The notes under the pieces are model-generated. The model worked only from the letters and a program-made list of their open reading frames with translations. It was not told the origin of the DNA and searched no databases. Both the position numbers and the translations under genes were made by a program. DNA of 38,559 nt from positions 1 to 38,559 of the forward strand of contig CAYHEU010000002.1 in the NCBI GenBank assembly GCA_964355785.1, in the 5' to 3' direction. Shown one piece after another: positions 2,100 to 22,375 of this stretch (the stretch's first letter is position 1; each line of letters starts with the position of its first letter). Source of the stretch: an uncultured Candidatus Saccharibacteria bacterium. Lineage in GTDB: Bacteria > Patescibacteriota > Minisyncoccia > UBA6257 > 2-01-FULL-56-20.

Positions 2100-2201
2100 A
2101 GAATGCAAAATTCAAAAGTCAAAGAGCAAAATTCAAGTGTCGTTCGCTTGGAACGAACTCGTTTATTTTGAATTTTGATATTTGCATTTTGAACTTTTTT
2201 T

Positions 2202-2762: not shown

Positions 2763-2780
2763 ACAGATTATAGAAATCCA

Positions 2781-3395
2781 ATGAAGCAATCAACGAAAAG
2801 ACTCGCAAGCGTGGTACTCGGTCTCCTCTTCATCGTGGGAGCGCTTGTGATTTATTTTTACTTCGTGCGCCCCGCAAACGAGGAGGCCCAAAAAATAAAG
2901 AGCGATCTTGTGGGCCAAGAGCTTTTCCTTGAGAGTCAGAAATCGGCGGTGAGCCAAGTGGAGAATCTCATCAATTCCTATAAACAAGCCGAGGGCAAAG
3001 GGGAGTTTCAAGACGTAATCTCGATGGCGCTTCCGCTGAGCGCAGATTATGCGGGCGCGCTCGCCCAACTCGCCGGCATAGTTCAGAATAACGGACTCTC
3101 GCTCAAATCGCTCTCGTTTGGCACCCCCGGATCCAAAGGCCAGCCGATTCCGAGAAAAAAAACGGGAACGGCGTCTTCTCCCGGGGATTTGGTAAAGCCA
3201 TTGAACACGCTAAGGATCACGGTGAATTTTGACGGTTCGTACGAGAATTTCAAAAAGTTTTTGAGGAATTTGGAGACGAACATCAGGATTTTCGACGTTG
3301 AGACGCTTGGGTTCTCGCCGGTTGACACCACGAAATCGGGGCAGGACAATTTCGGCTATAAAATTACCGTTCTTGCGTATTATCAAAACCCATAA
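2781..3395 (+). CDS. pilO: PilO-like bitopic pilus alignment protein
   Basis: N-terminal TM (VVLGLLFIVGALVIYFYFV), coiled-coil, C-terminal domain with the LRNLETNIRIFDVETL motif typical of PilO. Operon position. Confidence 0.6.
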   Translation: MKQSTKRLASVVLGLLFIVGALVIYFYFVRPANEEAQKIKSDLVGQELFLESQKSAVSQVENLINSYKQAEGKGEFQDVISMALPLSADYAGALAQLAGIVQNNGLSLKSLSFGTPGSKGQPIPRKKTGTASSPGDLVKPLNTLRITVNFDGSYENFKKFLRNLETNIRIFDVETLGFSPVDTTKSGQDNFGYKITVLAYYQNP

Positions 3396-3402
3396 CACAA
3401 AC

Positions 3403-3693
3403 ATGGCGATCATTATCGAAGAAGAACGAAATAAAATGAGTCCGATCACGCTCCTCACGTGGGGCGTGGTTCTCGTGATTATCGTCGTCACGGTCTATTA
3501 CGTATTCTTCAAGAAGCCCCAGACGGTCGAGATTATCGCTCCGCCGGATTTTCAGAACACCCAGCAAATCTCGAAAATCAATCTCGATCCGGAGGTGATC
3601 ATTGAGCACCCCGGATTCAAATCGCGAACGACGTACGTCACGCCGCCTGTGCCGGGGAATCTCGGGAGAAGTAATCCATTCCTCCCGTTCTGA
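3403..3693 (+). CDS. Small single-pass membrane protein, pilus-operon accessory (function unknown)
   Basis: ATG at 3403 lies 8 nt after the pilO stop. The track ORF start at 3298 overlaps pilO and is less likely. TM segment ITLLTWGVVLVIIVVTVYYVFF. Confidence 0.5.
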   Translation: MAIIIEEERNKMSPITLLTWGVVLVIIVVTVYYVFFKKPQTVEIIAPPDFQNTQQISKINLDPEVIIEHPGFKSRTTYVTPPVPGNLGRSNPFLPF

Positions 3694-3964
3694 CGAGAAA
3701 ATATAAAATATTTTAAAGCCAAGAGTTAAAAATACCAGACACACAATGACATTATTTATCTCAAAGTCGAAACCAACATTGACGGAAAATATTCCCGCCT
3801 GCCAAAGCCGATCCAAAATTTTGGTTTACATACACAACACCTAATCCATATGAACACTAACGTAACATTAGGATATTCAGTTATGGGTCGAAAAATTTTG
3901 GTTTGTTCGGCGGGCCCCGTAGAAACAAGTTTCTCCGGGGCGGGCAGGTAATTTTCTGCGTGGT

Positions 3965-5695: not shown

Positions 5696-5756
5696 AGATC
5701 CGGGTTCAAGTGTGATATTATAGAATAAAGTCATATAGAATTTTCTCCTCGAAAAA

Positions 5757-6830
5757 ATGGACGATTATAAGCAAAAACTTTTGGATCTCTTGATCACGAC
5801 TGCGAAACAGAACGCCTCGGATCTTCATATAGGCGTCGGGCGCCGTCCCACGCTCCGCATCGACGGGAGTTTGGTGCCGCTCCAAAAAGAGCCAATCGTG
5901 ACTCCGGAGATCGCAGAAGGGCTGATCTTAAGCCTCTTGACCCCCGATCAGAAGGAGCATTTCGTGGTGAAAAAGCAGATCGATTTCGCCTACACGCTTT
6001 TAGATAAGGCGCGATTCAGGGTAAACGTGTATTTCCAGCGAGGATACATGGCGGCTTCTCTCCGCCTCATTCCTGGGAGGATCCGGACGCTTGAAGAATT
6101 GAATCTCCCACCGATTCTCCATGACTTTACGGGCCTCTCCCAAGGATTCGTTCTCCTCGTTGGGCCGGCTGGCCATGGAAAATCCACCACGCTTGCCGCG
6201 TTGCTCGATGAGATAAACCACAAGCGGACCGACCACATTATCACTATTGAGGATCCGATAGAATACCTTTTCGTGCAGGATCGCTGTCTCATCTCACAAA
6301 AAGAGGTGGGAAGCGACATCCCGACTTTCCGCGAGGGTCTCCGCACGATTCTCCGCCAGGACCCGGACGTAATCATGATCGGCGAGATGCGGGATCCCGT
6401 ATCAATCTCGACTTCAATGACGGCGGCGGAAACGGGGCATTTGGTTTTTTCGACTCTTCACACCAACTCCGCTTCGCAGACCGTCGACCGCATCATCGAC
6501 TCCTTCCCGCCGGAACAGCAGGGGCAGGTTATTTCTCAACTCGCCGCAACGCTTGTTGCGATTGTTTCCGAACGTTTGATCCCGCGCCTCTCCGGCGGCC
6601 GCGTGCCTGCGGTTGAGATTATGATTGTGAATCCGGCGATCCGAAACCTTATCCGCGAGCGCAAAGTGTATCAGATTGACTTGGTGATTGAGACGAGCCT
6701 TCAGGAGGGGATGATTACTTTGAATCGCTCGCTTGCAAGTTTGGTGAAAAACAAAGAGATTTCTCTCGAGACCGCGGAGACCTATTCCTTCAACCAAGCA
6801 GAGCTTCGGATCCTTCTTGAGAGAACATAG
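5757..6830 (+). CDS. pilT: Twitching-motility / pilus retraction ATPase PilT
   Basis: ASDLHI, Walker A GPAGHGKSTT, IMIGEMRD, GHLVFSTLHTNSA, AIRNLIRE motif. ~357 aa, typical PilT size. Confidence 0.92.
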   Translation: MDDYKQKLLDLLITTAKQNASDLHIGVGRRPTLRIDGSLVPLQKEPIVTPEIAEGLILSLLTPDQKEHFVVKKQIDFAYTLLDKARFRVNVYFQRGYMAASLRLIPGRIRTLEELNLPPILHDFTGLSQGFVLLVGPAGHGKSTTLAALLDEINHKRTDHIITIEDPIEYLFVQDRCLISQKEVGSDIPTFREGLRTILRQDPDVIMIGEMRDPVSISTSMTAAETGHLVFSTLHTNSASQTVDRIIDSFPPEQQGQVISQLAATLVAIVSERLIPRLSGGRVPAVEIMIVNPAIRNLIRERKVYQIDLVIETSLQEGMITLNRSLASLVKNKEISLETAETYSFNQAELRILLERT

Positions 6831-6839
6831 TGCTTCTCT

Positions 6840-8051
6840 ATGAAATTCAAATACAACGCAAAAACGAAGGAAGGGCAGACGCAGGTTGGATTCGTGGAGT
6901 CGGGAAACCGCGAATCGGCCGCGAACATTTTGGCGAGCCACGATCTTTTCGTGTTGAGCATCGCGGAGGCGGAGAAAGTCCGCTGGTATGATAGAATCGC
7001 GAATTACTTCCGCGGCGTGAAACGGAAGGACATGGTGCTCTTCACGCGCCAGTTGGCCACGCTTCTTGAGGCGCGCATTTCATTGAACGATTCTTTGAAG
7101 ACCCTCGCAAAGCAGATTACGCACCCCGTGCTCAAGGAAACGGTTTTTCAAGTGTCGCAGGACATCGACGCCGGGCTCTCATTCTCGCAATCGCTTGAGC
7201 GGCAGGGCGCCGTTTTTTCCGATTTTTTCGTGAGCATGATTCGGTCGGCGGAGGTAACGGGAAATCTCGACGAGGTGACGAGTTTCCTTGCCGATTACTA
7301 TGAAAAGGATTTTATCTTGATCGGGAAAGCCCGTTCGGCGCTTATCTATCCGGCAGTCGTGATAGGCCTTTTCGCAATAGTGGTTATTTTGATGCTTACC
7401 ATGGTTATTCCCCAGCTCGCGCCGATCTTCTCACAGGCGGGCGTGAAGCTCCCCGTATTTACGAGATTTCTCGTGGCATCCGGGAGTTTTCTTGTTTCTT
7501 GGTGGCCGGCCGTGCTTTTTGGAATTGTCGGAGTCGTGATGATTGTGTTAAACTATCTTCAGACTCCGGAAGGGCGGGGTTTTTGGGATGACATGAAGCT
7601 CCGCCTCCCTATTTTAAGTCGTATTTATAGGCCTTTGAGCATCGCACGATTTTCAAATGCGGCCTCGATACTCTTAAGGGGGGGCGTTCCGGTGTCCCAA
7701 GCGATGGAGATCGTGAGTCACACTGTGGATAACGTCCTCTACCAGGATTTTCTCCACGAAGCGGCGGAGGCGGTGCGGCAAGGAGAGCCGCTCTCGACCG
7801 CGATTAGCCGGCACCCGGAATACTTCCCGTCGCTTGTCTCCCAGATGCTTGTGATAGGGGAAACGACGGGCCAACTTGATAAAATATTCATGAGAATAGC
7901 GACGTTCTACAGCCGCGAGGCGGATAACGTGATGAACAACATCGTGGATCTTATCCAGCCGCTTCTCATGATCGGCATCGGGGGGCTCGTAGGGTTGCTC
8001 TTTGCGTCAATCCTCCTTCCAATTTACGAGTTGACAACAAAGATCCAGTAA
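6840..8051 (+). CDS. pilC: Type IV pilus platform protein PilC (GspF family)
   Basis: Two GspF repeats (FTRQLATLLEARISL... and FSNAASILLRGGVPV...), three TM segments, ~400 aa. Confidence 0.9.
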   Translation: MKFKYNAKTKEGQTQVGFVESGNRESAANILASHDLFVLSIAEAEKVRWYDRIANYFRGVKRKDMVLFTRQLATLLEARISLNDSLKTLAKQITHPVLKETVFQVSQDIDAGLSFSQSLERQGAVFSDFFVSMIRSAEVTGNLDEVTSFLADYYEKDFILIGKARSALIYPAVVIGLFAIVVILMLTMVIPQLAPIFSQAGVKLPVFTRFLVASGSFLVSWWPAVLFGIVGVVMIVLNYLQTPEGRGFWDDMKLRLPILSRIYRPLSIARFSNAASILLRGGVPVSQAMEIVSHTVDNVLYQDFLHEAAEAVRQGEPLSTAISRHPEYFPSLVSQMLVIGETTGQLDKIFMRIATFYSREADNVMNNIVDLIQPLLMIGIGGLVGLLFASILLPIYELTTKIQ

Positions 8052-8081
8052 AACGAAAAGGTCGAAAACGAAATAAATTAA

Positions 8082-8594
8082 ATGAATAGAAAAGGTTTTA
8101 CTCTTATTGAGCTTCTGATCGTAATCGCCATCATCGGCATTTTGGCCTCCGTGGTCTTGGTCGGCATCGGTCCGGCGCAGCGGAGCGGCAGGGATGCCCG
8201 CCGCATCGCGGACCTCCGGCAGATTCAGAATGCGCTCGAGCTCTACAAGTCGGCGAACGGGCAGTATCCGGTGGGATCGGGAGATGTAGCAGCCCTTGGT
8301 CTCGGAATTGATATTTCGAAAGATCCGAGGGTGGGAGTCGGAGGCGCTGGCCCCGACTATCAATACCTTCCGGGCCTCGATTCGACTGGCGTAGTGACCG
8401 GCTATCTCTTGCTCGCGGTGCTTGAAGGCGATATTCCGGCATCAGCGAACAACGTAGCTGCGAGCCCCATGCAGCCGGACGGCGTTACCCTCTATGACTT
8501 TGGTCTTTTGACGGTCGGAACATTCACCGCCTGCGGCACAGATGGGTTTACGGGGGCCGGTGCTCCCTCGGACGTCTACTGCATACAGCTCTAA
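8082..8594 (+). CDS. Type IV major pilin (prepilin with short leader)
   Basis: MNRKG|FTLIELLIVIAIIGILASVV class III signal with Glu+5. The only pilin here with a short leader. Directly after pilC. Confidence 0.85.
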   Translation: MNRKGFTLIELLIVIAIIGILASVVLVGIGPAQRSGRDARRIADLRQIQNALELYKSANGQYPVGSGDVAALGLGIDISKDPRVGVGGAGPDYQYLPGLDSTGVVTGYLLLAVLEGDIPASANNVAASPMQPDGVTLYDFGLLTVGTFTACGTDGFTGAGAPSDVYCIQL

Positions 8595-8624
8595 GAAGTT
8601 CTATCTCCCCCTAGAGTTCGTATA

Positions 8625-9479
8625 ATGGCGATTTCTCTTTTTGTGTTCGGCGTAGCAGTCGGAAGCTTCCTGAATGTCTTGCGCGTCCGTTACGATCCGG
8701 AGAAATTCATCTTGAACAAGAATATTATTGGCGGCCGGTCGGTCTGTCCGAAGTGCCGGAATACGCTCAGATGGTTTGAGCTCGTTCCAGTCGTGAGCTT
8801 CGTTCTCCAGGCCGGCCGCTGTCGCCATTGCGGAGGTAAAATCAGCCCTCTCTACCCAATTGTTGAGATTGTGATGGGGCTGATTTTTGTTTTTGTGCCG
8901 TTCGGCCTCACGCCCGTGTTCGGCGTCCCAAGTCCTCTGTTCTACGCGCTTTCTCTCTTATGGATCTTGGTCGGCGTCGCCCTTTTTCTTATGGCGCTCA
9001 TTGACGCAAAAACAAACCTTATTCCGAACGAGATAGTTTTTTTGCTTGTCGTTTTGGGAATTTTGATCGCCGCCCTCTCCGGTTCACGCTTCGGATACAC
9101 CGAGGGGTCGTTTGCGGGGCACTATGCCTTCCTTCTCGGGATTCGCGAGAATATCTGGCTGAATCGCTTGTTCGCCTCCGCCGTCTCCGCGCTCTTTTTC
9201 GGTTTCGTGATCGCCGTAACCCGCGGGCGCGCGATGGGTATGGGGGACGCAAAGCTCGCCTTTGCGCTCGGGATGGTGTTCGGGTGGCCGGACGTGCTTC
9301 TCGTTGTCGCGGTCGCATTCATACTTGGAGCGCTCTTCGGGCTCGGCGCGATACTCTTGAGAAAAAAGACGATGAGAGGAACGGTGCCGTTCGGTCCGTT
9401 CCTTGCGATAGCTTCTTTCCTGGTTTTCTTTTTCGGATTTGAGATCGTTGATTTCTATTTCAAACTGTTCAATATTTAG
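8625..9479 (+). CDS. pilD: Prepilin peptidase / N-methyltransferase (A24 family) PilD
   Basis: CPKC...CRHC Zn motif in the N-terminal domain. Polytopic membrane protein with GMGDAKL and a second Asp-containing motif. Confidence 0.9.
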   Translation: MAISLFVFGVAVGSFLNVLRVRYDPEKFILNKNIIGGRSVCPKCRNTLRWFELVPVVSFVLQAGRCRHCGGKISPLYPIVEIVMGLIFVFVPFGLTPVFGVPSPLFYALSLLWILVGVALFLMALIDAKTNLIPNEIVFLLVVLGILIAALSGSRFGYTEGSFAGHYAFLLGIRENIWLNRLFASAVSALFFGFVIAVTRGRAMGMGDAKLAFALGMVFGWPDVLLVVAVAFILGALFGLGAILLRKKTMRGTVPFGPFLAIASFLVFFFGFEIVDFYFKLFNI

Positions 9480-9515
9480 AATTCTAAGGATAGGATTTAG
9501 GGTATAATAAAAGCT

Positions 9516-10148
9516 GTGCGGATAATAAAACCCCTAAATTCTAAATTCTATCCCCTAAATACTCACTCGGGTTTTACATTGATCGAGCTTCTTGTGGTTG
9601 TTGCGGTAACCCTTGTTGTCTCGAGTATCATGATTGTCTACGGGAACAAATCGCGGAGCCAGGCATCGCTCTCGATCGAGGCGGCGAAGATTGCGCAGGT
9701 GATCCTCCGCGCGAAATCGCTCGCAATCTCAACCTACAACATTCCTCCGATTCCCTGCGGCTACGGTATCAAGATAGATTATCCTAATAAAGAATATTCA
9801 CTTGTCCTCTACGATTATCTGCCGACCGAAACGGAATGCCTCGACATAAAAGACAGGCTTGTTCAAGAGCAGACGAGAATCGTGCCGCTTGCGGCGAGCG
9901 GGATTCCGGAAACCTATCGTTTAAGCGAAGGGGTTGTGTTTCCCACGCCGCCGAGCGGTCTTGTGGAATACGTGGTGTTCGTGCCACCGGATCCGAAGAC
10001 TCACATATTCCTGCGGCCGGGAGGAGGAGGCGGATCGCCGAATCCCGCGCTCACCTCCGGCTCCGGCGAGATAAAAATTGAAACACAAGATGGCTCCGTG
10101 GGTATCTCGATATTCATAACGCCATTCGGGCAACTGAGCTTCCGATGA
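9516..10148 (+). CDS. Prepilin-type minor pilin (long leader)
   Basis: GTG start. Leader MRIIKPLNSKFYPLNTHSG|FTLIELLVVVAV with Glu+5. Confidence 0.75.
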   Translation: MRIIKPLNSKFYPLNTHSGFTLIELLVVVAVTLVVSSIMIVYGNKSRSQASLSIEAAKIAQVILRAKSLAISTYNIPPIPCGYGIKIDYPNKEYSLVLYDYLPTETECLDIKDRLVQEQTRIVPLAASGIPETYRLSEGVVFPTPPSGLVEYVVFVPPDPKTHIFLRPGGGGGSPNPALTSGSGEIKIETQDGSVGISIFITPFGQLSFR

Positions 10149-10684
10149 ATCTTATCCTAAATTCTTTCCGCGTGAGGCGATACCCGGGCGTTTCAAGGAG
10201 GGGCATGATTATTGTGGAGCTCATGGTGGCGCTAAGCGTCTTAATGGTGGGGCTTATTGCGATACTTACGCTTTTGAACCGCTCGCTTGCGTTGACTCGC
10301 GCGATTACCGAAAATTACGCCGCAACGTACCTTGCAGCGGAAGGAGTGGAGGTCGTGAAAAATTTGGTGGACGGGAACCATCTTCAGGGAAAGATATGGG
10401 GCGACGGATTCGGCGGAGGCGGCACGTTTGAGGTTGTCTATGACAGCGCGACGCTGTCGTCCGATCTCGGAAGATTCTTGTCTTTTGATCCTACGACGCA
10501 TCTCTACGGCTATGCGGGCGGCGACATAACGCCCTTCAAGCGGCGAGTGGAAGTTTCGTTTTTCGATAATGACGGGGATGGCGTGGGGGAAGAGATGAAG
10601 GTGAACTCTGTGGTACTCTGGCAGGGCCCGGGCGGCCTTTTGCAAATAAACTTGGAAGACCATTTTTATAAATGGAGACTCTAA
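10145..10684 (+). CDS. Prepilin-type minor pilin
   Basis: 4-nt overlap with the previous gene. Leader MNLILNSFRVRRYPGVSRRG|MIIVELMVALSVLMVGL with Glu+5. Confidence 0.7.
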   Translation: MNLILNSFRVRRYPGVSRRGMIIVELMVALSVLMVGLIAILTLLNRSLALTRAITENYAATYLAAEGVEVVKNLVDGNHLQGKIWGDGFGGGGTFEVVYDSATLSSDLGRFLSFDPTTHLYGYAGGDITPFKRRVEVSFFDNDGDGVGEEMKVNSVVLWQGPGGLLQINLEDHFYKWRL

Positions 10685-10708
10685 GAATAGGGGTTAGGGA
10701 TTAGAATA

Positions 10709-11089
10709 TAGAATTTAGGGATATGAAAAATACAAAACTACATTCATTTAAAGATTTGAATGTGTGGCAAAAAATAGCTGATTTGTCGGTGCGCCTCTAT
10801 TCTGTGACGGAAAAATTTCCGCCTTCAGAGTTATATGGATTGGTAAACCAAATGAGGAGGGCGACAATTTCCGCAAGTTCTAATATTGCGGAGGGGTTCA
10901 AGAGATCCCACAAGAAGGAAAAGTTGCAATTCTACAGGATCGCATCAAGTTCTGTAACGGAGTTAGAGAGCCAAATCGAGATTACTTGCAAGCTTAAATT
11001 TTTAACCAATAATGATTATAGGGATCTTATGAATCGTGTTACGGAAGTTTCAAAAATGATTGAGGGGCTAATCAAATCCCTAAATTCTA
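10709..11089. repeat. Perfect 13-bp inverted repeat bracketing the four-helix-bundle coding part
   Basis: TAGAATTTAGGGA at 10709..10721 and its exact reverse complement TCCCTAAATTCTA at 11077..11089. Imperfect complementarity extends outward to ~10681 and ~11117. Confidence 0.8.
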
Positions 11090-11598
11090 AATCCTATTCC
11101 CTAAGTCCTGATTCAGGCTTCACTATGATCGAGCTCGTGGTGTCGCTTGGAATTTTTGTGGTTCTTGTGACGATCGCGGCCGGAGGTTTCGTGCAGGCGC
11201 TCCGAGCCCAGCGCCAGGTAGGGGCTTTGATCGCCGCGAACAGCAGCGTGAGTCTCACGATCGAGCAGCTCACGAGAGAAATCCGCACGGGGTTTGATTT
11301 CTCTCTCCTTGCGCCCGACGAACTTACCTTCACGAATGCCCGGCTTGAAGATGTTACCTATCGCCTGAATGTGGACGTGATCGAGCGGCGTGCGATCGAC
11401 AGCGCGGGGAACGATTCTGGTTTTCAGCCCATAACCGCCGATAACGTTTCGGTGAAATATCTCGGCTTTGTTTTCTTGGACGATCCAGTGAATTACCCGC
11501 CGCGCATTACGATTTCTCTCGGCATCTCGCCCACGGAAAGCGACGTAAAAGAAGTGATTTTGAAGCTCCAGACGACGGCGAGCGCGCGGTTCCTTTAG
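10723..11598 (+). CDS. Single ORF fusing a 23S-rRNA-IVS-type four-helix-bundle protein (codons 1-~118) to a prepilin-type minor pilin
   Basis: The N-terminal part has the family hallmarks FKDLNVWQK...SSNIAEGF...ASSSVTELESQ. It continues in frame into ...SLNSKSYSLSPDSG|FTMIELVVSLGIFVV. An internal ATG at 11056 would give a conventional 20-aa leader. Confidence 0.7.
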   Translation: MKNTKLHSFKDLNVWQKIADLSVRLYSVTEKFPPSELYGLVNQMRRATISASSNIAEGFKRSHKKEKLQFYRIASSSVTELESQIEITCKLKFLTNNDYRDLMNRVTEVSKMIEGLIKSLNSKSYSLSPDSGFTMIELVVSLGIFVVLVTIAAGGFVQALRAQRQVGALIAANSSVSLTIEQLTREIRTGFDFSLLAPDELTFTNARLEDVTYRLNVDVIERRAIDSAGNDSGFQPITADNVSVKYLGFVFLDDPVNYPPRITISLGISPTESDVKEVILKLQTTASARFL

Positions 11599-11710
11599 TG
11601 AATCCTGGTCCGAGGCGGGCTTGTGTGTATATCTCCTCTGATTAATTTGCTATAATTTAGGAAACATAAAACAGGACTGCGACGGCAGAAAAGGCAGCAT
11701 AAATAATCTC

Positions 11711-12229
11711 GTGAAAAAAACACTTATTCTTCTTATTGTAGTAATCGCGGGATTCGGAATGGTGTATCTCTTGCTTACCTCCGGTCTCGTTCGCCGGGAC
11801 GAAAACGTTCTCCCTCCGGAAGTGAAACTTACGGAATACGAAAAAGTTCTCGAAACCACCCCGGTTTCGGTTCTCGTGGGAACGATCGTGCGAACCGGGG
11901 AAGAACTTGTGGTTGATGTCCCCGCTATCCTTGGCGTTGCGACCCCGGAAAATTCTCCGAGAAGGACGAAGATGATCGCGATTATCGAGGGAACGCGGGT
12001 GCTCGCGCGCGCCGTAAAGAGCAGCGCGGAGCTCGATCGCGAACTTCGTGAGTACACGCGAAAAACCTCTTCTCTCCGGGGAGAGCCACCCCTTCCTTAT
12101 ACGATTAAGACAATCGACAAAGTCGATCTAAAGGTCGGTGATGTGGTAATGATTCGTGCGGCCGCGGGAGTCGACGTACGGGACGAGAAAATAATCGAGG
12201 CCGCAGAGATCATACGGGAAAATCAATAA
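11711..12229 (+). CDS. Hypothetical secreted/membrane-anchored protein
   Basis: GTG start, N-terminal hydrophobic anchor LILLIVVIAGFGMVYLLL. No recognisable domain. Confidence 0.5.
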   Translation: MKKTLILLIVVIAGFGMVYLLLTSGLVRRDENVLPPEVKLTEYEKVLETTPVSVLVGTIVRTGEELVVDVPAILGVATPENSPRRTKMIAIIEGTRVLARAVKSSAELDRELREYTRKTSSLRGEPPLPYTIKTIDKVDLKVGDVVMIRAAAGVDVRDEKIIEAAEIIRENQ

Positions 12230-12233
12230 CAGC

Positions 12234-13022
12234 ATGAAAAAAGAACTCAAGAATTTCATCAAAGAAGTGGGAACTTTTACCGTTGCACTCACGCTCGCAT
12301 TCGTAATATTTCTGGGAATCGTGGTAGTGCGAGGAGCATTCGGGGAGCCGACTGGTTCGCCGTCTGATGCCTCGAGTAATGCGCCTTCTCCCATTAACGT
12401 GAATTTGGGAACGCAAACGAAGCAGGGAAAAATAGTTGCTGAAGATTTTTTCAGTCTTACTGCGATCGCTATTGATCCGGGACTCGGATGGATGTCGCAA
12501 ATCGTACAGAGAATAAAAGATGTGCGGGAAACGTATCACTTGGAAGCCGCGGGAGCGAACAACCTTACCGTGCCGTTCGATCTTCCTACCTTTTACCGGT
12601 TGTGCGGCGACAGTGACGGTTGCCGAGTAGTGCTCGGAGCTCGCAATGTTTATACCACCTTGCCCGCTGGCTTCGGCCCCGACGTTATTTATCTCAAGGG
12701 TCCTTATGTGATGAGCGTAGGGAGTCCCTTTGCTGGCGGTTTAGGCCGCGGCTGGAGCTTGTTTGCAGCCGGACTTCCTACTTCTCTCGTGTCCATAAAC
12801 CAAGGTATCGATTTGAACGGCACGGTTCAATACCCGGTTGGCGGTCCCTCTGTGGGTATTCTCTTCGGCTGTCAGTTTACAGATGGAGAATTTGGCTTGC
12901 CGAGCGGCGGATCGTCTCCCAGTTTTATCCAGAGCGATGCGCTGGAAGGTTTTGGCCTTCGTAATGCCGTCGTGAGCACCTACAGCAACAGCAAAATTTG
13001 TTCTTTGGATATCGAAGATTAA
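12234..13022 (+). CDS. Hypothetical secreted protein sharing an N-terminal module with the next three genes
   Basis: N-terminal hydrophobic segment, then AFGEPTGSP...PINVNLGTQTKQGKIVAEDFF. C-terminal part is Gly-rich and unrelated to the Cys-rich paralogues. Confidence 0.6.
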   Translation: MKKELKNFIKEVGTFTVALTLAFVIFLGIVVVRGAFGEPTGSPSDASSNAPSPINVNLGTQTKQGKIVAEDFFSLTAIAIDPGLGWMSQIVQRIKDVRETYHLEAAGANNLTVPFDLPTFYRLCGDSDGCRVVLGARNVYTTLPAGFGPDVIYLKGPYVMSVGSPFAGGLGRGWSLFAAGLPTSLVSINQGIDLNGTVQYPVGGPSVGILFGCQFTDGEFGLPSGGSSPSFIQSDALEGFGLRNAVVSTYSNSKICSLDIED

Positions 13023-13054
13023 GGGAAATGGAAAACCCAAAGGAGTCCAAAGTA

Positions 13055-13540
13055 ATGAGGTTATTTGTTCTCTTTGCTGGATCGTCTCTTTTCGCGTTTT
13101 TTGTTTTTATGGGAGTAGCGGTGGTAAAAGGGAACATTGAAGAACCTTCAAGCATCTCTGTGGTCATGCCCGTTGTCATGAATACCGGCCCTTCCTACCA
13201 AGAGAAAGCGAAGAACCTTGGCGCGGAGGATTTTTATGTGCGGGCGACCGGAAGGTGGCTGAGTCGGGGGCCCAAGGTCGTGGTCGTGGGGAGTATTTTG
13301 GATGCAGTAAATACGACCGCCTACTGTCCTGCCGGGTACCAGCTTATAAGTTGTTCTGGAGCGCGCGCACGCGACGGGGCTGATAACTGTCCCGAAGACC
13401 AGTGCGGATATGTGGGGGTGATTGCCGTTGACGCATCGGGAAATCCCGCGACCACGGACGCCGTGGGCTGCAAAGTGGGTGTTGATCCGAGTGGTAATGC
13501 GGAAGCGGTGGTGCACACATTCTGCATCCAGCGGTTTTAA
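13055..13540 (+). CDS. Small secreted Cys-rich protein, paralogue 1
   Basis: ATG at 13055 is preceded by AAGGAG at 9-nt spacing; alternative ATG at 13028. Signal anchor, GPSYQEKAKNLGAEDFYV, then a 6-Cys module CPAGYQLISCSG...CPEDQCGYVG...GC...C. Confidence 0.65.
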   Translation: MRLFVLFAGSSLFAFFVFMGVAVVKGNIEEPSSISVVMPVVMNTGPSYQEKAKNLGAEDFYVRATGRWLSRGPKVVVVGSILDAVNTTAYCPAGYQLISCSGARARDGADNCPEDQCGYVGVIAVDASGNPATTDAVGCKVGVDPSGNAEAVVHTFCIQRF

Positions 13541-13556
13541 TTTGTACTCGTCCTTT

Positions 13557-14072
13557 ATGAATCATTTTGCCGTATTTTTGAAAAGAGCCGGCGTGGCGGC
13601 GGTCGCCGCGGGAGCTTTTGGAGTTCTCTTTCTGGGCGCGGCGATCATTTCGAAGGCGTTCCAAGACCCCTCGGGAGGACAACCGTCGGTTCCGACAAAT
13701 CTCATTGATGCGCTCGATGTGGGTTCGACGTATCAGGAGAAAGGCGGTACGATTGGCGCAAGCGATTTCTATGTCGTAAATGCGGGGCGGTGGGCGAGCG
13801 AGGTTTTAGAGACAAAGATTGAAGAAGTTACGGGCGGTGCGACCGCGATTGCCTACTGCCGCCCGGGTTACCAGCTTGTGGGTTGCTCTGGCACAGGAAT
13901 TCGCGATGCGGCGAGTGCATGCCCGGAGGACCAATGCGGCTACGTGGGGACGGTGCCGGTTAACGGAGGAGGGAACCCCACGACGGTGAACCCCGCGGGC
14001 TGCAAGGCGGGCGTGGACGCAGGGGGCTATATGCGCGCAATCGTCTATGCGTACTGCCTCGAGAGTTTCTAA
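13557..14072 (+). CDS. Small secreted Cys-rich protein, paralogue 2
   Basis: ATG at 13557 (the track start 13422 overlaps the previous gene). AFQDPSGGQPS, GSTYQEKGGTIGASDFYV, CRPGYQLVGCSG...CPEDQCGYVG...GC...C. Confidence 0.65.
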   Translation: MNHFAVFLKRAGVAAVAAGAFGVLFLGAAIISKAFQDPSGGQPSVPTNLIDALDVGSTYQEKGGTIGASDFYVVNAGRWASEVLETKIEEVTGGATAIAYCRPGYQLVGCSGTGIRDAASACPEDQCGYVGTVPVNGGGNPTTVNPAGCKAGVDAGGYMRAIVYAYCLESF

Positions 14073-14082
14073 AGATAACGCA

Positions 14083-14727
14083 ATGAAAAAAGATTTTTTC
14101 GTACTGTACTTTCTTATAACATTCCTCTTTTCTCTTACGATCCTCGGATGGAGTGGCGGGATTCTCTTTGCGCTTCCCCCCCAGACGGCGCCCGGAGGTC
14201 CCGGCACGCCCCCTCCGTCGCCCCCCCCGCCGCCGAGCATTCCATCTCCTGCGCCTACGCCAACCGGCGGCGTGAAGAATTTTGCTGAAGCGACGCAAGC
14301 CCCGCCGATAGATAACATCCCTATTCCGCTCAATATCGGCTCCGCCTATCAGCAGAAAGCGGGAGAGCTCGGGGCAAATGTGTTCTACCTCGTGTCCTTG
14401 GGAAGGTTTGCGCACGAGGCACCGAAAATCAAAGTTAAAAATATGACCCAGTTGAGTGGAAGAATCGCGGAGGTGCTCTGTGATCCGGGATACAAATTGA
14501 TAAGCTGCTCCGGGGGCAGGGATCAAAACGTAGCTGATAGCTGTCCCGAAGATGCGTGCGGTTTTGTGGGAGTGGTGCCGATTGATAAAACCGGGCGGAC
14601 GAGCACCTCGACGGATCCGGGAGACGCCATGGCGGTCGGATGCAAAGCGTATGCACGAAATACCGGCGGCGCTCATGTTGCGGTGTATGCGTACTGCATG
14701 TGTAACCAAATTACGTGCCTCCCCTAA
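14083..14727 (+). CDS. Small secreted Cys-rich protein, paralogue 3, with Pro-rich linker
   Basis: ATG at 14083. Signal peptide, linker PPQTAPGGPGTPPPSPPPPPSIPSPAPTPTGG, GSAYQQKAGELGANVFYL, CDPGYKLISCSG...CPEDACGFVG...GC...C plus two extra C-terminal Cys. Confidence 0.65.
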   Translation: MKKDFFVLYFLITFLFSLTILGWSGGILFALPPQTAPGGPGTPPPSPPPPPSIPSPAPTPTGGVKNFAEATQAPPIDNIPIPLNIGSAYQQKAGELGANVFYLVSLGRFAHEAPKIKVKNMTQLSGRIAEVLCDPGYKLISCSGGRDQNVADSCPEDACGFVGVVPIDKTGRTSTSTDPGDAMAVGCKAYARNTGGAHVAVYAYCMCNQITCLP

Positions 14728-14730
14728 AGC

Positions 14731-16095
14731 ATGAAATTTTATGCCCATATAGTATGTGCACTCGTGGGAATTGCGGTTTTCACCCAGATCCCGGATGTGA
14801 CGGCGGCGCCTCGCCGGCTTGACGGACAGGCATGGTCGCCGAACGTGGGATGGGTGAGTTTCCGCGGTACGGCAAGCGACGGATCTCCCTACGGCGTATT
14901 CGTTGATGACGTAAACGGAGGATTTTCGGGAAACGCCTGGTCCCCGAACGTGGGATGGTTAAGTTTTGAGCGCGGTGCGTTCAACAATGTGACGCTCCCG
15001 GGAAGCTCGGCCGCAGGGTCCCCCGTCGGCAATTGGAGATTTGAGGAAACGGGGGGAACCCAAGCCCTCGACTCTTCCGGGAACGCAAACAATGGATCGA
15101 TGATCGGGAATCCCGCGAGGAGAACGGGTATTTTGGGGAGGGGAATTGGCTTTGACAGCGTGGACGATGTCGTGAGAGTAGATACTCCCACAACGGACCA
15201 CGTTTTGAATCCTGCGACGAGCATGACCGTCGAGACCTTTATAAATCCGTCCGTTGGATACGGAAGTAGCGCGAATCCCGGCGTCATAAGCAAAAGAGGA
15301 ACTTGGGACGATGGGTGGGGTGGTATTTGGATAAGCACAGAGGCCCTAACGTACGGGAAGATCTGGGGCAGAATATATCAGTCAAACGGCCTCGATCGCA
15401 CTCTCCCTAAGGTGGTCACGATTCCCACTGACAGATGGTCGCATGTGGTGCTCGTCGCGGACGCGACAGTTTCTCCCCGCAGAGTACAGCTCTACATAAA
15501 CGGGGCGCCTGCGGGTTCGGTTACTTATAACGGCACGCTGCGGCAGTCGACCGCCCCGCTCCTCATCGGGCAGCAGCTGGGCGGACGTTTCAAGGGCGCG
15601 ATTGATGAGGTGCGAATCTATGACCGCCCGCTCTCGCAAGCAGAAGTCCTCGCGCGGTTCAACGAAGTGACGGGCGGGACGGGCATCACGGGGTACTGGA
15701 GGATGGATGAAACAAGCGGCGTCGTTGTCGGCGATTCTTCGGGGAACGAGAGGCACGGGACGGTGAACCGAGGTTTTACCCCCGCGATCGGGAAAAACGG
15801 CGGCGCCTATAGTTTTGAAAACACTCTGGGGCAGTATGTGACATTGCCCGAGGCAACGCTTACGGATATCGCGAACATTAATAATGTAACCTTAGAGGGA
15901 TGGTTTTATTGGAAGGGCGGGACGACGCTTATGCGGGATTCCGGATGGGGCCCGAGTAACATCTTGGGCGGATGGGCTCTCGGGCTCGATATTAGCGGAC
16001 GGCTCCACTTTGACGCGGGCGACAAACGGTTTTCAACCGGCATTTCCGTCGCAGTACTCGAGAACGCATTGCACCATTACGCAATGGTGAAATAA
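14731..16095 (+). CDS. Secreted LamG (concanavalin-A-like) repeat protein, upstream segment ending at an in-frame TAA
   Basis: Signal peptide. Two LamG_3-like units (GNWRFEE..LDSSGNANNG...WSHVVLVAD...LYINGA...FKGAIDEVRIYDRPLSQAEV; second unit starts GYWRMDETSG...). The second unit is cut by TAA at 16093..16095. Confidence 0.75.
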   Translation: MKFYAHIVCALVGIAVFTQIPDVTAAPRRLDGQAWSPNVGWVSFRGTASDGSPYGVFVDDVNGGFSGNAWSPNVGWLSFERGAFNNVTLPGSSAAGSPVGNWRFEETGGTQALDSSGNANNGSMIGNPARRTGILGRGIGFDSVDDVVRVDTPTTDHVLNPATSMTVETFINPSVGYGSSANPGVISKRGTWDDGWGGIWISTEALTYGKIWGRIYQSNGLDRTLPKVVTIPTDRWSHVVLVADATVSPRRVQLYINGAPAGSVTYNGTLRQSTAPLLIGQQLGGRFKGAIDEVRIYDRPLSQAEVLARFNEVTGGTGITGYWRMDETSGVVVGDSSGNERHGTVNRGFTPAIGKNGGAYSFENTLGQYVTLPEATLTDIANINNVTLEGWFYWKGGTTLMRDSGWGPSNILGGWALGLDISGRLHFDAGDKRFSTGISVAVLENALHHYAMVK

Positions 16096-16167
16096 GGCGG
16101 GAACGTCACGTACTATATTTACGGAGAGCGTGTATTCTCCGGAAGCGGGGTTACCAATACCAAACCG

Positions 16168-17715
16168 GTGCAGAGTCCATGGTATGTGATGAAAAATGGA
16201 AGGCATGTAAGCGGCATAGACACCCTCGACTACACTTCCGGCTTTGCGGACGATATTCGAATTTATAACCGCGCCTTGAGCGAGGCGGAAATTCAGGCGT
16301 ACGTCGGTACGGTAAACGCTGCAGTTGCGCGTCTTGATCTCGGCGTAACGCCGAACGAGGGGAAGGGTTTCGGAAGATTTCTCGCGACGGACACCGGCTG
16401 GGATGGCCTTCTTAAGTTCGACGGCACGGGGTATGGCGTAATCCGCAAGGAACTCGATCTTTTGGGGTACGTATGGGGGAGCGATAAAAATGTATCAACC
16501 GGGGAATTGACGGGAGTTGTGGGATGGATGAGTTTTAACGGAAGGGCGACTGATGCCGCAAAAACTCCCTACGGGGTTTCGATCATGAATGTAAACCCGG
16601 GTTTCTCGATCTCCGTTTCCGCTGACCCCGCTTCTGGCCAACGGCCGTTGAACGATGTCGATTTTAATATTGAAATTTCAGGGAATATCCTGAATTCGTT
16701 TGTATACAAAGTTGATTGCACGAGTGACGGCACGTACGACATAACACAAAACGGAACGCAGACGACCTACGTAGTTGCCGATGCGTGCGACTATAACATA
16801 CCGGGGCGCTATCTTGCGACTGTCTTGGTTGAAGAATTATCCGCCTCGCCAATTCCCACCTCCGTCGATTACAAGCAGATATTTATCGATGTCGCGCCTC
16901 GTGCGAACCTCTCGGGCTACGGGTGGTCCTCTGAAATTGGATGGCTAAGTTTTCGCGGGACGACCTTGGACGGTTATCCTTACGGTGTCTACATTGATGA
17001 AGCGACCGGGAATTTCTCCGGGTATACCTGGTCCTCAAATTCTTCGGGCGGCGTTACGGGCGGGATCGGGTGGATCAACTTCGCTCCCTCGGGGCCTTAT
17101 CCGAGCGCGCCAAATTTCTCCGCACGCTATAACTTCTTAACTGATACGATCGATGGATGGGCGCGCGCGGTTTCCGCAGGAGGCGGTTGGGATGGCTGGA
17201 TCAAGCTTAGCGGAACTGCAACGGACGGCACGGTCTATCAGGTAAAGCGGGATATCGTGACAAGCAGAATGCAGGGATTTGCCTGGGGAGGCGACGTAAT
17301 CGGCTGGATCAGCTTCTGCGGTCCCGGCGGGAGTCCGTATTGCGTGATCGCAACCGGACTCGTAAGGCCCGTAACCGCGAGCCTCGTGGCAATACCGAAT
17401 AACGGCAAGCGCCCGCTCGCGGACGTGGATCTTGCGGCGACCACGAATACCACAAACGACGTGAATATTTTCCCCGTTACCTACAAGTTTGACTGCACCG
17501 ACGATGTTGCGGCGGGATCCGCAGGCGCGGTCTACGAAAAAACGATTACGGTTCCTGCCGCGACCTATGCCGCAACCGATCTTTGCAGATATGATAATGC
17601 GGGGAGCTATACTGCGAGCGTGAGAATCGAGCAGGGGACGGGCCAAGTGGTAACCGCGCGCGCAACAACGAAAGTGATTGTGTTCCCCGGCGGCATTATT
17701 GAGACGCCGCCGTAA
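16168..17715 (+). CDS. Downstream segment of the same LamG/repeat protein (same frame, open from 16096)
   Basis: Codons 16096 onward (GGNVTYYIYGERVF...FADDIRIYNRALSEAEIQ) complete the LamG unit interrupted at 16095. Then GW[ILM]SF repeats and PKD-like segments follow. Confidence 0.7.
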   Translation: MQSPWYVMKNGRHVSGIDTLDYTSGFADDIRIYNRALSEAEIQAYVGTVNAAVARLDLGVTPNEGKGFGRFLATDTGWDGLLKFDGTGYGVIRKELDLLGYVWGSDKNVSTGELTGVVGWMSFNGRATDAAKTPYGVSIMNVNPGFSISVSADPASGQRPLNDVDFNIEISGNILNSFVYKVDCTSDGTYDITQNGTQTTYVVADACDYNIPGRYLATVLVEELSASPIPTSVDYKQIFIDVAPRANLSGYGWSSEIGWLSFRGTTLDGYPYGVYIDEATGNFSGYTWSSNSSGGVTGGIGWINFAPSGPYPSAPNFSARYNFLTDTIDGWARAVSAGGGWDGWIKLSGTATDGTVYQVKRDIVTSRMQGFAWGGDVIGWISFCGPGGSPYCVIATGLVRPVTASLVAIPNNGKRPLADVDLAATTNTTNDVNIFPVTYKFDCTDDVAAGSAGAVYEKTITVPAATYAATDLCRYDNAGSYTASVRIEQGTGQVVTARATTKVIVFPGGIIETPP

Positions 17716-17764
17716 AGTTAGGGGTGAGAATTTAGAATATAGGGATTAGGGTATAATTAAGGAA

Positions 17765-18325
17765 ATGGGTTTGCTAAATCCTGAATCCTACACCCTAAAT
17801 TCTCGGGCATCGGGGCAGGCCCCGCACCGAGCCGAGCGCTTCGTTTTCTTCAACGCCATGAGTCGAATGAGGCGTTACTTTTCCTCCATTGCTGTCTTGG
17901 GCAAACAAACGTTGTTTAGGAGAAAACGCCGGAGCGTTGCAGTGCTCGACCCGCCTGCCTTAGTACGAGTACGGCGGGCAGGTCTGGTGTCGGGGCAAGC
18001 AATGATCCTTACCGTTTTGGCGCTCGGTGGGACGATTTTGGGTGCTACCACGATCGCCGGTCTCCTTATGCTCTATCAAATTCGGCAGACGGCCGATCTC
18101 GCAAATTCCGCGAAGGCGATTTTTGCGGCGGATGCCGGCATTGAGTGGGCTCTCTACGATTTTACGTGCAACCTTGATCCGGGGGATTCAATCGTCTGCG
18201 TGCCGCAGCCTACGATGACGAACGGGAGCTTGCTTTCCGTAACCGTTACTCCCGGTCCGGGCGGTTCGATAAAATCAGTAGGATCGTCGGGAAAATCGAG
18301 CCGCGCATTCCTTCTCTCGCTCTAA
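17765..18325 (+). CDS. Pilin-like protein with a 60-codon in-frame insertion after the leader
   Basis: MGLLNPESYTLNSRASGQ..., then an Arg-rich non-protein-like 60 aa, then SGQAMILTVLALGGTILGATTIAGLLMLY hydrophobic helix. Last gene of the pilus block. Confidence 0.55.
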   Translation: MGLLNPESYTLNSRASGQAPHRAERFVFFNAMSRMRRYFSSIAVLGKQTLFRRKRRSVAVLDPPALVRVRRAGLVSGQAMILTVLALGGTILGATTIAGLLMLYQIRQTADLANSAKAIFAADAGIEWALYDFTCNLDPGDSIVCVPQPTMTNGSLLSVTVTPGPGGSIKSVGSSGKSSRAFLLSL

Positions 18326-20656: not shown

Positions 20657-20684
20657 TGCAAGTTGGGGTATAGTAAAACCGCTT

Positions 20685-20761
20685 GCGGGCGTAGCTTAGC
20701 GGTCTAAAGCGCTGCCCTGTCACGGCAGAGATCGTGGGTTCAAATCCCATCGCCCGCGCCA
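20685..20761 (+). tRNA. tRNA-Asp (anticodon GTC), CCA encoded
   Basis: Acceptor GCGGGCG/CGCCCGC, D-arm TAGCTTAGCGGTCTAAAGC, anticodon stem CTGCC/GGCAG with loop CTGTCAC, T-arm GTGGG-TTCAAAT-CCCAT, discriminator G, then CCA. Confidence 0.9.
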
Positions 20762-22375
20762 TTTGAGACGAATCGAGGCAAGAGCCTCTTCTCTTGTAGA
20801 ATCCAACGGCCTTTTCCACGGTTCTAACTTTTTGTATTCCGTTTCGAGTTCTGGATAAGCATTTCCGATTGGTATGAACCATTCGTACGGAGAAATATTG
20901 AGTTTTCCGTCTTTAAGGACTGAGTTCTGACTGAACCCCTTAAGTATTTCCCGTTTTACCTCTAGAGTACCGAAAAGAAAGGCTTTATGAGCGTATAGAG
21001 CGAAGTTAAATGTCTTTTCAGTCAGTTCTAGCCATTTCTCGGCTCTCGCCTCGGTATCGCGTAAATTAGCCTTGAGTTGAAGTATTTTCTTCTCTAGCTC
21101 ACCCTTCTCTTGGAGAAAAAAATTATCGCCAATCATTTCTCGGTATCGCATTCTGATGAGTTCGTCGAGTTCGCTTTGAGTCTTCACGAGCGTCCTGTTT
21201 TGCATTTCGTAGATTTTGGTCCTATCTTCAATTTCTTTATCGTTCTGTTCGTTAAGAACTTCTAGCGCCCAATCTCTAAACTCGGGCAGAATCGTATATT
21301 TTTCAATTTCGTTTTCAATTTGCAGCTCGATATTTTCCAGCGAAACGGTTTTCCTCTGAGAACAATTAACTTCCACTTTTTTGCGGGTGCAGAAGTAATA
21401 CGTAAAACTTTTGAGCTTATTATCTCTTTTAATCAGTTTAATCTTCTCTATGGCGGTAATCATGCAATTACATTCACCACAGTGCATGCATCCCGTGAAA
21501 GCGAATATGTGTTTCTTGGGCCTAGGCTTACCCTTTCTTCCTAGTAAGACTTGAACTCTGTCAAATTCTTCAAGTGTTACAATGGGGTCATGTTTGCCTT
21601 CGTATAGGTTCCCCTTGTATTCGATAAGACCCGCATAGAATGGATTGGTAAAGATTCTATAAAGGGTGCTTCGAGACATTGGTTTGCCACCTTTCTTTTT
21701 GGTTTGTCTAGTTCTGAATCCCCATTGATTGTTAAGAATTTCAAGAATTTGTGGTGGCGTGTAGTTTCCCGTGAGCATTAAGTCCCACGCCTTGCGGATT
21801 AAATGAAAACGCTCTGGGTCATTCAGTATATAGTTTTCCCCTCGTAGTTCTGTTTTTGTGTTGAGATACCCCGAAGGAGCCGAGCCAGGAAGCCACCCCT
21901 TTTGCCGCTTTGTGTTTAGGCCTCGTTTTACCGCAACACTGCTGTCGTCCGAGTATTTTTTGGCCATTCCAAACTCAAGTTGAAGCATGAATTTGTCCTC
22001 GGGTGTGTTGCGGTAAACTCGCTGCAGAGTTTTAACTTCTACAAGTTTACTTTCATCCATTGCGGTGACTATCCACCCTCCATCAAAGGCATTTCGAGCC
22101 AACCTATTTGGATGCCAAACCAAGAGCCCTCCTGCCTTTCCCGACTCTATTTGTTGCATAACGTGGTTGAAGATAGGCCTACCGCGCTTAAAGGCACTCT
22201 GGCTTTCACCTTTCTCGCTGCCGCCGAATCTTTCAATAACCTTGAGGTGTTCACGTTTTTCTATAGCTGCTAGCTCCCTCTCTTGGTCATCAAGGGAGAG
22301 CATCTGTCTGTCTTCGCTCTCGGTGCTTTTACGGCAGTACAGAATATATTTAATTTTCTCGCTTTCTTGTTTCAT
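20720..22375 (-). CDS. Large serine recombinase (integrase)
   Basis: N-terminal resolvase domain YCRKSTESEDRQMLSLDDQ, recombinase domain, Zn ribbon CMHCGECNCMITA...C, long coiled-coil. ATG at 22375 is preferred over the track TTG at 22462. The last 13 codons and the stop lie antisense in tRNA-Asp. Confidence 0.88.
   Translation of the reverse strand: MKQESEKIKYILYCRKSTESEDRQMLSLDDQERELAAIEKREHLKVIERFGGSEKGESQSAFKRGRPIFNHVMQQIESGKAGGLLVWHPNRLARNAFDGGWIVTAMDESKLVEVKTLQRVYRNTPEDKFMLQLEFGMAKKYSDDSSVAVKRGLNTKRQKGWLPGSAPSGYLNTKTELRGENYILNDPERFHLIRKAWDLMLTGNYTPPQILEILNNQWGFRTRQTKKKGGKPMSRSTLYRIFTNPFYAGLIEYKGNLYEGKHDPIVTLEEFDRVQVLLGRKGKPRPKKHIFAFTGCMHCGECNCMITAIEKIKLIKRDNKLKSFTYYFCTRKKVEVNCSQRKTVSLENIELQIENEIEKYTILPEFRDWALEVLNEQNDKEIEDRTKIYEMQNRTLVKTQSELDELIRMRYREMIGDNFFLQEKGELEKKILQLKANLRDTEARAEKWLELTEKTFNFALYAHKAFLFGTLEVKREILKGFSQNSVLKDGKLNISPYEWFIPIGNAYPELETEYKKLEPWKRPLDSTREEALASIRLKWRGRWDLNPRSLP

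Follow-up and report, generated by a model that had tools for sequence, protein, structure and literature searches.

Three six-cysteine paralogues and their shared head

The window analysed here, a stretch of 38,559 nucleotides (contig CAYHEU010000002.1), comes from an 851-kb genome of the ultrasmall Patescibacteria (candidate phyla radiation, CPR) and carries, within a type IV pilus operon, a block of small genes for putatively exported, cysteine-rich proteins. Three of these genes are tandem paralogues, referred to as A, B and C, whose products end in a common head with six cysteines, and the gene immediately before them shares only their N-terminal region. The predicted structure of the head places it, at the level of fold, with the resistin and PCSK9 C-terminal modules, and relatives of it are found on true pilins in other bacteria. 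Throughout, P, L and G numbers designate the proteins, loci and genomes of this analysis. All four open reading frames (ORFs) are free of stop codons:

12234..13022, plus strand: P0004, first gene of the block; N-terminal module (N-module) plus a different head
13055..13540, plus strand: paralogue A (P0001, 161 residues); signal or anchor helix, neck, six-Cys head at about 13280-13537
13557..14072, plus strand: paralogue B (P0002, 171 residues); helix at residues 3-33, linker, neck, six-Cys head at about 13812-14069
14083..14727, plus strand: paralogue C (P0003, 214 residues); Pro-rich linker at 14173-14271, between helix and neck, six-Cys head at about 14434-14697, two-Cys tail

That the three consecutive genes share a six-Cys module, as the first-pass annotation of this DNA had proposed, was verified by their alignment over the full length at 35-42% identity (P0001 against P0003, BLASTP E = 5e-31), in which the six cysteines and the motifs C-x-x-G-Y-[QK]-L-[IV]-[SG]-C-S-G, C-P-E-D-x-C-G-[YF]-V-G and G-C-K are invariant. 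The proline linker attributed to the third gene is also present, as LPPQTAPGGPGTPPPSPPPPPSIPSPAPTPTGG at residues 31-63 (33 residues, 48% Pro). The loop between Cys4 and Cys5, which had been described as strongly divergent, shows 27-50% identity, and the third gene carries an insert of 6 residues there, but it is not the most divergent part of these proteins; the two strands before Cys1 (12-20% identity) and the linker after the helix (15-31%) have diverged further. P0003 has eight cysteines in all, the extra two being located in a C-terminal C-M-C-N-Q-I-T-C(-L-P) tail that is kept in its orthologues P0006 and P0009.

Translation of P0001 may start at 13028 rather than at 13055. An in-frame ATG at 13028 adds M-E-N-P-K-E-S-K-V, and the P0001 orthologue in L005 has a longer Lys-rich N-terminus (MNNPNELKPKRP...), like the more typical basic n-region that the 13028 start provides. 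The better Shine-Dalgarno sequence (GGAG, 13041-13044) serves the ATG at 13055, not that at 13028.

Fold, probable disulfide bonds and conservation of the head

The fold of the head was examined in an AlphaFold2 model of P0002 based on a 55-sequence alignment of relatives, the first AlphaFold run, with an alignment of 4 sequences, having been unusable (predicted local distance difference test, pLDDT, 43.6). In the final model, which has a mean pLDDT of 84.6, an N-terminal helix (residues 3-33) is followed by coil and by a six-stranded β-sandwich (residues 86-169); over head residues 91-170 the means of 10-residue blocks range from 83 to 98, most of them above 89. When this model was compared with the PDB by Foldseek, the PCSK9 C-terminal domain took the first 11 ranks and 26 of the first 29 (probability 0.94-1.0, about 90 columns, root-mean-square deviation 2.7-4.2 Å, 15-23% identity). 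The other three of the top 29 were phage tailspike or pyocin-fibre chains of lower probability, and resistin-like beta (RELM-beta, 1rh7) was at rank 31, while a Foldseek search of viral models gave only weak, generic tail-fibre knob matches. Independently of the model, distant relatives of the head point in the same direction: the Pfam model PCSK9_C3 scored below threshold in P0024 (2.6e-4, profile positions 17-71 of 74) and P0027 (4.3e-3), and the Resistin model did so in P0025 (0.072). PCSK9_C3, whose cut-off is 26.7 bits, gave the relatives only 21.5 and 17.7 bits, and Resistin, whose cut-off is 25, gave 14.1 bits. We therefore place the head, at the level of fold, in the resistin / PCSK9 C-terminal module, as a bacterial branch that is remote and uncatalogued. 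Searches of the four block proteins against Pfam returned nothing even at E = 10, NCBIfam likewise gave no match, and phmmer and profile searches of PDB sequences found nothing significant for them. The first-pass annotation had been unable to assign the Cys module to any named family; this still holds at the level of sequence, where curated thresholds are not reached, and no longer holds at the level of fold.

The distribution of cysteines among relatives bears on how the head is likely to be locked. All six cysteines are present in 55 of 72 aligned heads, and Cys1, Cys2, Cys5 and Cys6 are nearly invariant across the 72, while Cys3 and Cys4, the pair in C-P-E-D-x-C, are replaced together in about ten. 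This joint loss speaks for a four-Cys core to which a local C3-C4 bond has been added. In PCSK9 (C-E-E-G-W-T-L-T-G-C-S ... C ... C-C), two of the three bonds would be the counterparts of the putative bonds of this core (C1-C6, C2-C5). The first head gene in L023 (6895-7491, P0016) and that in L027 (949-1563) lack Cys3 and Cys4 and keep the other four, the corresponding sites reading G-F-P-L-D-Q-G-G in P0016 and G-F-P-L-D-D-A-G in L027. Because the genome encodes both a VKOR homologue (83 bits) and a DsbA-like oxidoreductase (142 bits), disulfide formation outside the cytoplasm is plausible.

The three genes had initially been regarded as a diversifying set, and this proposal was contradicted by the comparison of paralogues with orthologues. 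P0001, P0002 and P0003 are each 73-76% identical to their positional orthologues (L005_A, P0005 and P0006), against the 35-42% that they share with their neighbours. By the method of Nei and Gojobori, the comparison of the window with L005 gave an omega (dN/dS) of about 0.07 for both A and B. Since dS is saturated (proportion of synonymous differences, pS, 0.68-0.72), this value is no more than a coarse, upper-level sign of purifying selection. Within these proteins, conservation is highest in the head (proportion of nonsynonymous differences, pN, 0.07 and 0.10). The paralogues are old and individually constrained, and the direction of the selection acting on them, strongly purifying, is clear. 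A tree of array members recovers partial A, B and C groups at 89-93% support and leaves deep positional orthology unresolved. What stands of the original picture is the presence of disulfide-type heads on a common N-terminal module within a type IV pilus operon; the diversification does not.

Carriers of the head, the N-module and the pilus operon

Word-indexed homology searches returned one orthologue for P0002 and a handful of sequences for the profiles. When 1.84 billion representative proteins were searched exhaustively with a profile, 75 relatives, counted as representatives at 50% identity, emerged at E <= 1e-3, 21 of them at E <= 1e-10. The neck and head are almost always C-terminal in these proteins, which fall into five kinds of carrier:

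Carrier a: the Patescibacteria N-module, [AG]-[FW]-x-E-P-x3-P-P...Q-x-K-x-G
Carrier b: type IV pilin N-termini, with N_methyl above cut-off in P0039, P0073, P0062 and P0057, and with class III leaders G-F-[ST]-L-[IL]-E in P0023, P0029, P0032, P0037, P0070 and P0082-85
Carrier c: PilV-like, P0036 (Shufflon_N E = 2.3e-10), with the head internal
Carrier d: signal peptide followed by [ST]-[ST]-Y-Y-P-[SA]-P-x-G-x-Y, an N-terminal motif that could not be placed in a family, in P0020, P0021, P0027, P0035 and P0060
Carrier e: YadA-like repeat fibre, P0022, with the head at its end

About 18 of the carriers that lack the N-module are pilins. Long proteins with R-R-G-A-T-L-[IV]-E leaders, in which the head is internal, are represented by P0036, P0040 and P0048 and by L100 542-2524, and the 12.5 kb of DNA covered showed no recombinase. 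According to the modular-pilin concept, binding modules have been grafted onto pilins and, in parallel, onto non-pilin tip proteins of the PilY1 type, and both kinds of protein are known to display them at the tips of pili (PMC8179133). The occurrence of one head both on true pilins and on a non-pilin leader fits this concept and a pilus-associated binding role.

The N-terminal module that the annotation had described as common to the three paralogues and the gene at 12234..13022 was confirmed by a BLASTP match of P0002 to P0004 (E = 2e-9 over residues 7-91, the similarity being limited to the N-terminal 90 residues or so) and by a profile of the three small proteins and one orthologue, made without P0004, which found the N-terminus of P0004 at 1.4e-6 in a search of the whole genome. 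Its extent required correction. The leader itself is shared, but the D-F-Y-type motif that had been included in the module belongs to the neck, [DN]-[FV]-[YW]-x(4-6)-G-[RK]-W-[AL]-S, which travels with the head and accompanies it in unrelated carriers. The N-module consists of a basic n-region, a hydrophobic helix of about 20 residues, [AG]-[FW]-x-E-P-x3-P-P and then P-[IL]-N-x-G-x3-Q-x-K-x-G, and the small residues at -3/-1 (AxA-like) before [FW]-x-E-P resemble a signal peptidase I site. An N-module profile, in whose seed alignment three of the four block proteins were included, finds all four genes at E values from 1.7e-27 to 5.4e-12. The module is also present in 17 of 61 relatives, in proteins of 146-868 residues with unrelated C-termini that are often Cys-rich or made of 'GNVGIGT' repeats, and at the 13 such loci that were examined a GW-repeat protein is adjacent in 4 and a pilus ATPase gene (pilB) is near in 1. 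These findings support the view that the N-module is a leader and stem which Patescibacteria reuse widely to carry different heads. A further candidate, the N-module as a divergent prepilin leader, was rejected: hhalign against pilin N-termini gave a probability of 0.4%, and the conserved motif comes after the hydrophobic helix.

P0004 combines the helix, A-F-G-E-P and the Q-x-K-x-G module with a different head, which has four invariant cysteines and ends in C-x-L-D-I-E-D in an alignment with orthologues from L005, L007, L022, L023 and L027; sequence searches of Pfam, NCBIfam and the PDB with P0004 were all without a match. Tandem trios of N-module proteins with different Cys-rich heads also occur in L059 (G040:C4, 7558-11233) and L062 (G051:C12, 9395-11939). 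The L059 trio adjoins a 1662-residue GW-repeat protein, and such an arrangement, a trio of N-module genes with a giant GW protein at its side, could be general. The source genome has a fifth N-module protein, of 509 residues with 'GNV[AG]IGT' fibre repeats, on contig C6 (N-module match at 20662-20808; locus L063, 8604-10133, minus strand), where its gene is found away from the pilus operon and beside a gene with a pilin-like N-terminus.

Positions 972-18325 of the window constitute a single plus-strand type IV pilus operon, in which the block is accompanied by the following genes:

Operon start side, plus strand: PilM, then two PilN/O-like genes
Plus strand: PilB (T2SSE match, E = 1.9e-126)
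Plus strand: PilT, then PilC (T2SSF match)
From 8082, plus strand: major-pilin-like gene, between PilC and PilD
8625-9479, plus strand: PilD prepilin peptidase (Pfam Peptidase_A24)
9516-10148, 10145-10684 and 10723-11598, plus strand: three minor pilins (Pfam N_methyl), directly upstream in the same operon
11711..12229, plus strand: orf11711, single-pass membrane protein of unknown function, with orthologues in L007, L022 and L023
14731..17715, plus strand: giant exported LamG and 'GW-x-SF' repeat protein, two ORFs in one frame (Laminin_G_3 E = 4.9e-27)
17765..18325, plus strand: pilin-like gene, which closes operon and block, with an orthologue behind the giant protein in L022

Pfam gives no match for orf11711 or for the pilin-like gene at 17765-18325, whose orthologue in L022 (9686-10036, 116 residues) lacks the Arg-rich extension that the window gene has at its N-terminus. 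After the operon come ligA and a tRNA-Asp gene. The intergenic gaps within the block measure only 3-32 nucleotides, which makes its co-transcription very likely, and the giant LamG/GW protein is a likely partner or adhesin for the head proteins.

Exact-match look-ups of relatives led to metagenomic contigs (from SRR12113383/4, SRR22387853 and SRR7467839) that have the same gene order, in L005, L007, L022, L023/L024, L025, L026 and L027, which represent about six lineages. In the recurring order, pilT-pilC-pilin-pilD is followed by three minor pilins, one gene like orf11711, one like P0004, two or three heads, the giant LamG/GW protein and, last, a pilin-like gene; its pilD and minor-pilin part is seen in L007 and L023/L024. 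Three head genes are present in five of the six arrays that could be counted, and two in L027; orthologues of the giant protein (1077+ and 1997 residues) stand behind the heads in L023, L022 and L025. In the syntenic loci orf11711 always immediately precedes the block, with which it has been co-inherited in L007, L022 and L023, and it could have a dedicated role in assembly or export.

Beyond these contigs, the Cys head was not found in 60 genomes from its own family and order or in 400 genomes sampled across the phylum, and a scan of 185,579 species genomes for its pattern found no relative. The 60 relatives also lack orf11711, and relatives of P0004 turned up only on the same metagenomic contigs as the heads. 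A scan anchored on PilD yielded one Patescibacteria relative, with too little downstream DNA. The block is therefore an accessory cassette restricted to one small clade of Patescibacteria, and it always lies inside a pilus operon. The association with type IV pilus minor pilins that had been put forward for testing is seen in every lineage in which the head is on the N-module. The module matches a known fold but not a well-known bacterial domain family, and its close relatives are always found in pilus loci, so that only half of what had been named in advance as evidence against a new pilus-associated family was encountered. The species-representative genomes of the bin's family are missing the entire accessory block and even a close PilD. 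The source bin is rated 8.8% contaminated, and whether contig C2 comes from the same organism as the rest of the bin deserves attention.

Proposed pilus-associated binding knobs and known systems

Because the same head is carried by genuine pilus subunits in other bacteria, the block proteins are most likely pilus-associated host-binding knobs. We give about an even chance to the specific proposal that they are exported, disulfide-locked, resistin-like knobs which, without being pilins themselves, serve the pilus tip and/or the LamG/GW adhesin as accessory binding parts. They would then be a version of the PilY1 and modular-pilin theme in small proteins, of relevance to how an episymbiont attaches to its host. 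Each of the three proteins consists of an N-terminal helix, putatively a Sec-type signal or anchor, with a conserved [RK]-G-x-[FW]-x-[ED]-P junction at its end, followed by a flexible linker that is Pro-rich in the third protein, the conserved neck Q-x-K-x-G...D-F-Y-x...G-R-W-A-S and a head of about 85 residues, predicted to be a six-stranded β-sandwich with three disulfides. Following export and oxidation by the VKOR/DsbA pair, the proteins would associate with the minor-pilin tip complex and/or the downstream giant LamG/GW adhesin, together with the P0004-type protein, so as to present ligand- or host-surface-binding knobs of an episymbiont-type bacterium.

The retention of three individually conserved paralogues in most lineages suggests three non-redundant subunits. 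The recurrence of the trio, along with the trimeric state of resistin and the three modules of PCSK9, suggests by analogy that they could form one heterotrimeric knob. In its fullest form, which we think rather unlikely, this idea would make A, B and C a single heterotrimeric resistin-like knob, a counterpart of the PCSK9 domain split over three genes, that is docked non-covalently with the P0004-type and LamG/GW proteins on the minor-pilin tip through the N-module and neck. If this were true, Patescibacteria would possess a plug-in, non-covalent system of pilus-tip adhesins, and the resistin/PCSK9 module, known as a hormone or receptor-binding domain of vertebrates, would be an ancient prokaryotic module for cell contact; its head might then bind the envelope of the host bacterium, as RELM-beta binds bacterial membranes.

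Several observations weigh against pilus-associated knobs of this kind. Most of the N-module fibre-like proteins of relatives are not beside genes for pilus machinery, and the head's more distant carriers of the pilin type are in many cases encoded by orphan genes. N_methyl does not match the four block proteins even at E = 10, and having no class III signal they cannot polymerise as pilins. The Foldseek E-values behind the fold assignment are modest (0.04-0.2), and the head family passes none of the curated sequence thresholds.

The block proteins might instead be independent cell-surface knobs or fibres, either anchored by the N-module or secreted, which work with the giant LamG/GW protein and are merely co-transcribed with the pilus genes. 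We regard this as a real though distinctly less probable possibility. It would account for the N-module on other heads and on 'GNVGIGT' fibres in relatives, where a GW protein is more often the neighbour (4 of 13 loci) than a pilus ATPase (1 of 13), for the fifth N-module fibre protein on another contig of the source genome, and for the presence of the head at the end of the YadA-like fibre P0022; the logic of a constant base with exchanged tips is also that of the mosaic adhesive trimer (MAT) fibres (PMC10769870). What it leaves unexplained is that every lineage with this head on the N-module keeps the genes in the pilus operon, from the minor pilins to the last pilin-like gene, and that some 18 other carriers are pilins. 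It is improbable that the proteins are soluble effectors released at the contact site to act on the host bacterium, for example by binding or permeabilising its membrane in the manner of RELM-beta/resistin. Their small size, the AxA-like, signal peptidase I-compatible site before [FW]-x-E-P and the resistin-like fold would suit such a role, and recombinant RELM-beta permeabilises bacterial membranes (PMC13647132). However, a neck and head at the end of pilins and fibres constitute a context of display rather than of a toxin, no immunity-like gene is evident, the Pro-rich spacer of paralogue C suggests a tethered, wall-spanning protein, and the sequence similarity to RELM passes no threshold.

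Two further possibilities were given far less weight. That the proteins are non-canonical pilins, with the N-terminal helix acting as a divergent pilin alpha-1 helix that is processed by PilD and polymerised into the pilus, is very improbable: although the genes sit among minor pilins, and the basic n-region, G-[TI]-[FL]-[ST] and 20-residue hydrophobic stretch of the P0004 type loosely recall a prepilin site, Glu5 is missing, N_methyl and hhalign give no support at the values reported above, and the conserved motif follows rather than precedes the hydrophobic helix and is succeeded by Pro-rich coil. Hardly any credence is left for an antigenically variable, diversifying paralogue set. Its attraction lies in the tandem paralogues, the variable loops and the insertion in one copy; it is already contradicted by the closeness of orthologues relative to paralogues, the low omega and the conservation of the head, and neither repeats nor a recombinase are associated with the block.

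Patescibacteria live on other microbes, and type IV pili, which mediate host binding in cultivated members of the group (Saccharibacteria), are their best-supported host-binding organelle (PMC11623550), but few of the actual binding parts are known. The block solves no long-standing question in this field, but it supplies a small and concrete group of candidate binding heads, encoded in a pilus operon, that lend themselves to expression. Its head represents an uncatalogued bacterial domain family, without a Pfam or NCBIfam model, that would link the vertebrate resistin/PCSK9 modules to the tips of prokaryotic pili and fibres. Three kinds of carrier share this head, namely true pilins, PilV-like adhesins and a leader specific to Patescibacteria, which makes it a clear example of module swapping, and the family should be useful for annotating 'hypothetical' genes beside pilus operons.

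The resistin/RELM and PCSK9 C-terminal (Cys/His-rich) modules (PF06954, PF18463; 2p4e, 2qtw, 7anq, 1rh7) have in common with the heads a six-stranded β-sandwich of about 80-90 residues, locked by disulfides that are predicted ones in the heads, the motif C-x-x-G-[WY]-x-L-x-G-C-S and a cysteine on the last strand, and the resistin trimer and the three tandem modules of PCSK9 find a parallel in the three block genes. The block heads differ in being bacterial, in the predicted disulfide of C-P-E-D-x-C, which is family-specific and dispensable, and in having no coiled-coil tail, and their carriers are pilins, fibres or the Patescibacteria N-module.

A binding module presented on a pilus is also the principle of Streptococcus sanguinis PilB (von Willebrand factor A, vWA) and PilC (lectin) and of the IncI-type PilV shufflon adhesins (for the concept, see PMC8179133). 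As in those proteins, the head has been fused to true pilin N-termini and occurs in a Shufflon_N protein, and the block genes lie among minor pilins; unlike them, the block proteins have neither a class III signal nor a pilin domain, and if they are borne by the pilus they would have to dock non-covalently, as PilY1 does. PilY1/PilC of type IVa pili is a non-pilin protein whose gene belongs to the minor-pilin operon; the tip complex of minor pilins probably presents it, and its binding modules are swappable (PMC8179133). The block proteins resemble it in being non-pilins encoded in a minor-pilin operon, but they are four small proteins and one giant LamG protein rather than one large protein; the PilY1 β-propeller has no Pfam match in the four of them, and Laminin_G_3 is the only domain found in the downstream giant. 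The MAT fibres of Bdellovibrio bacteriovorus, which have trimeric tips and serve a bacterium living on other bacteria in the recognition of host or prey, combine a constant N-terminal part with exchanged β-sandwich tips (PMC10769870). They are trimers of about 1000 residues with an unrelated N-terminal domain, whereas the block proteins have 161-214 residues and almost no stalk; the likeness between the two systems is one of logic.

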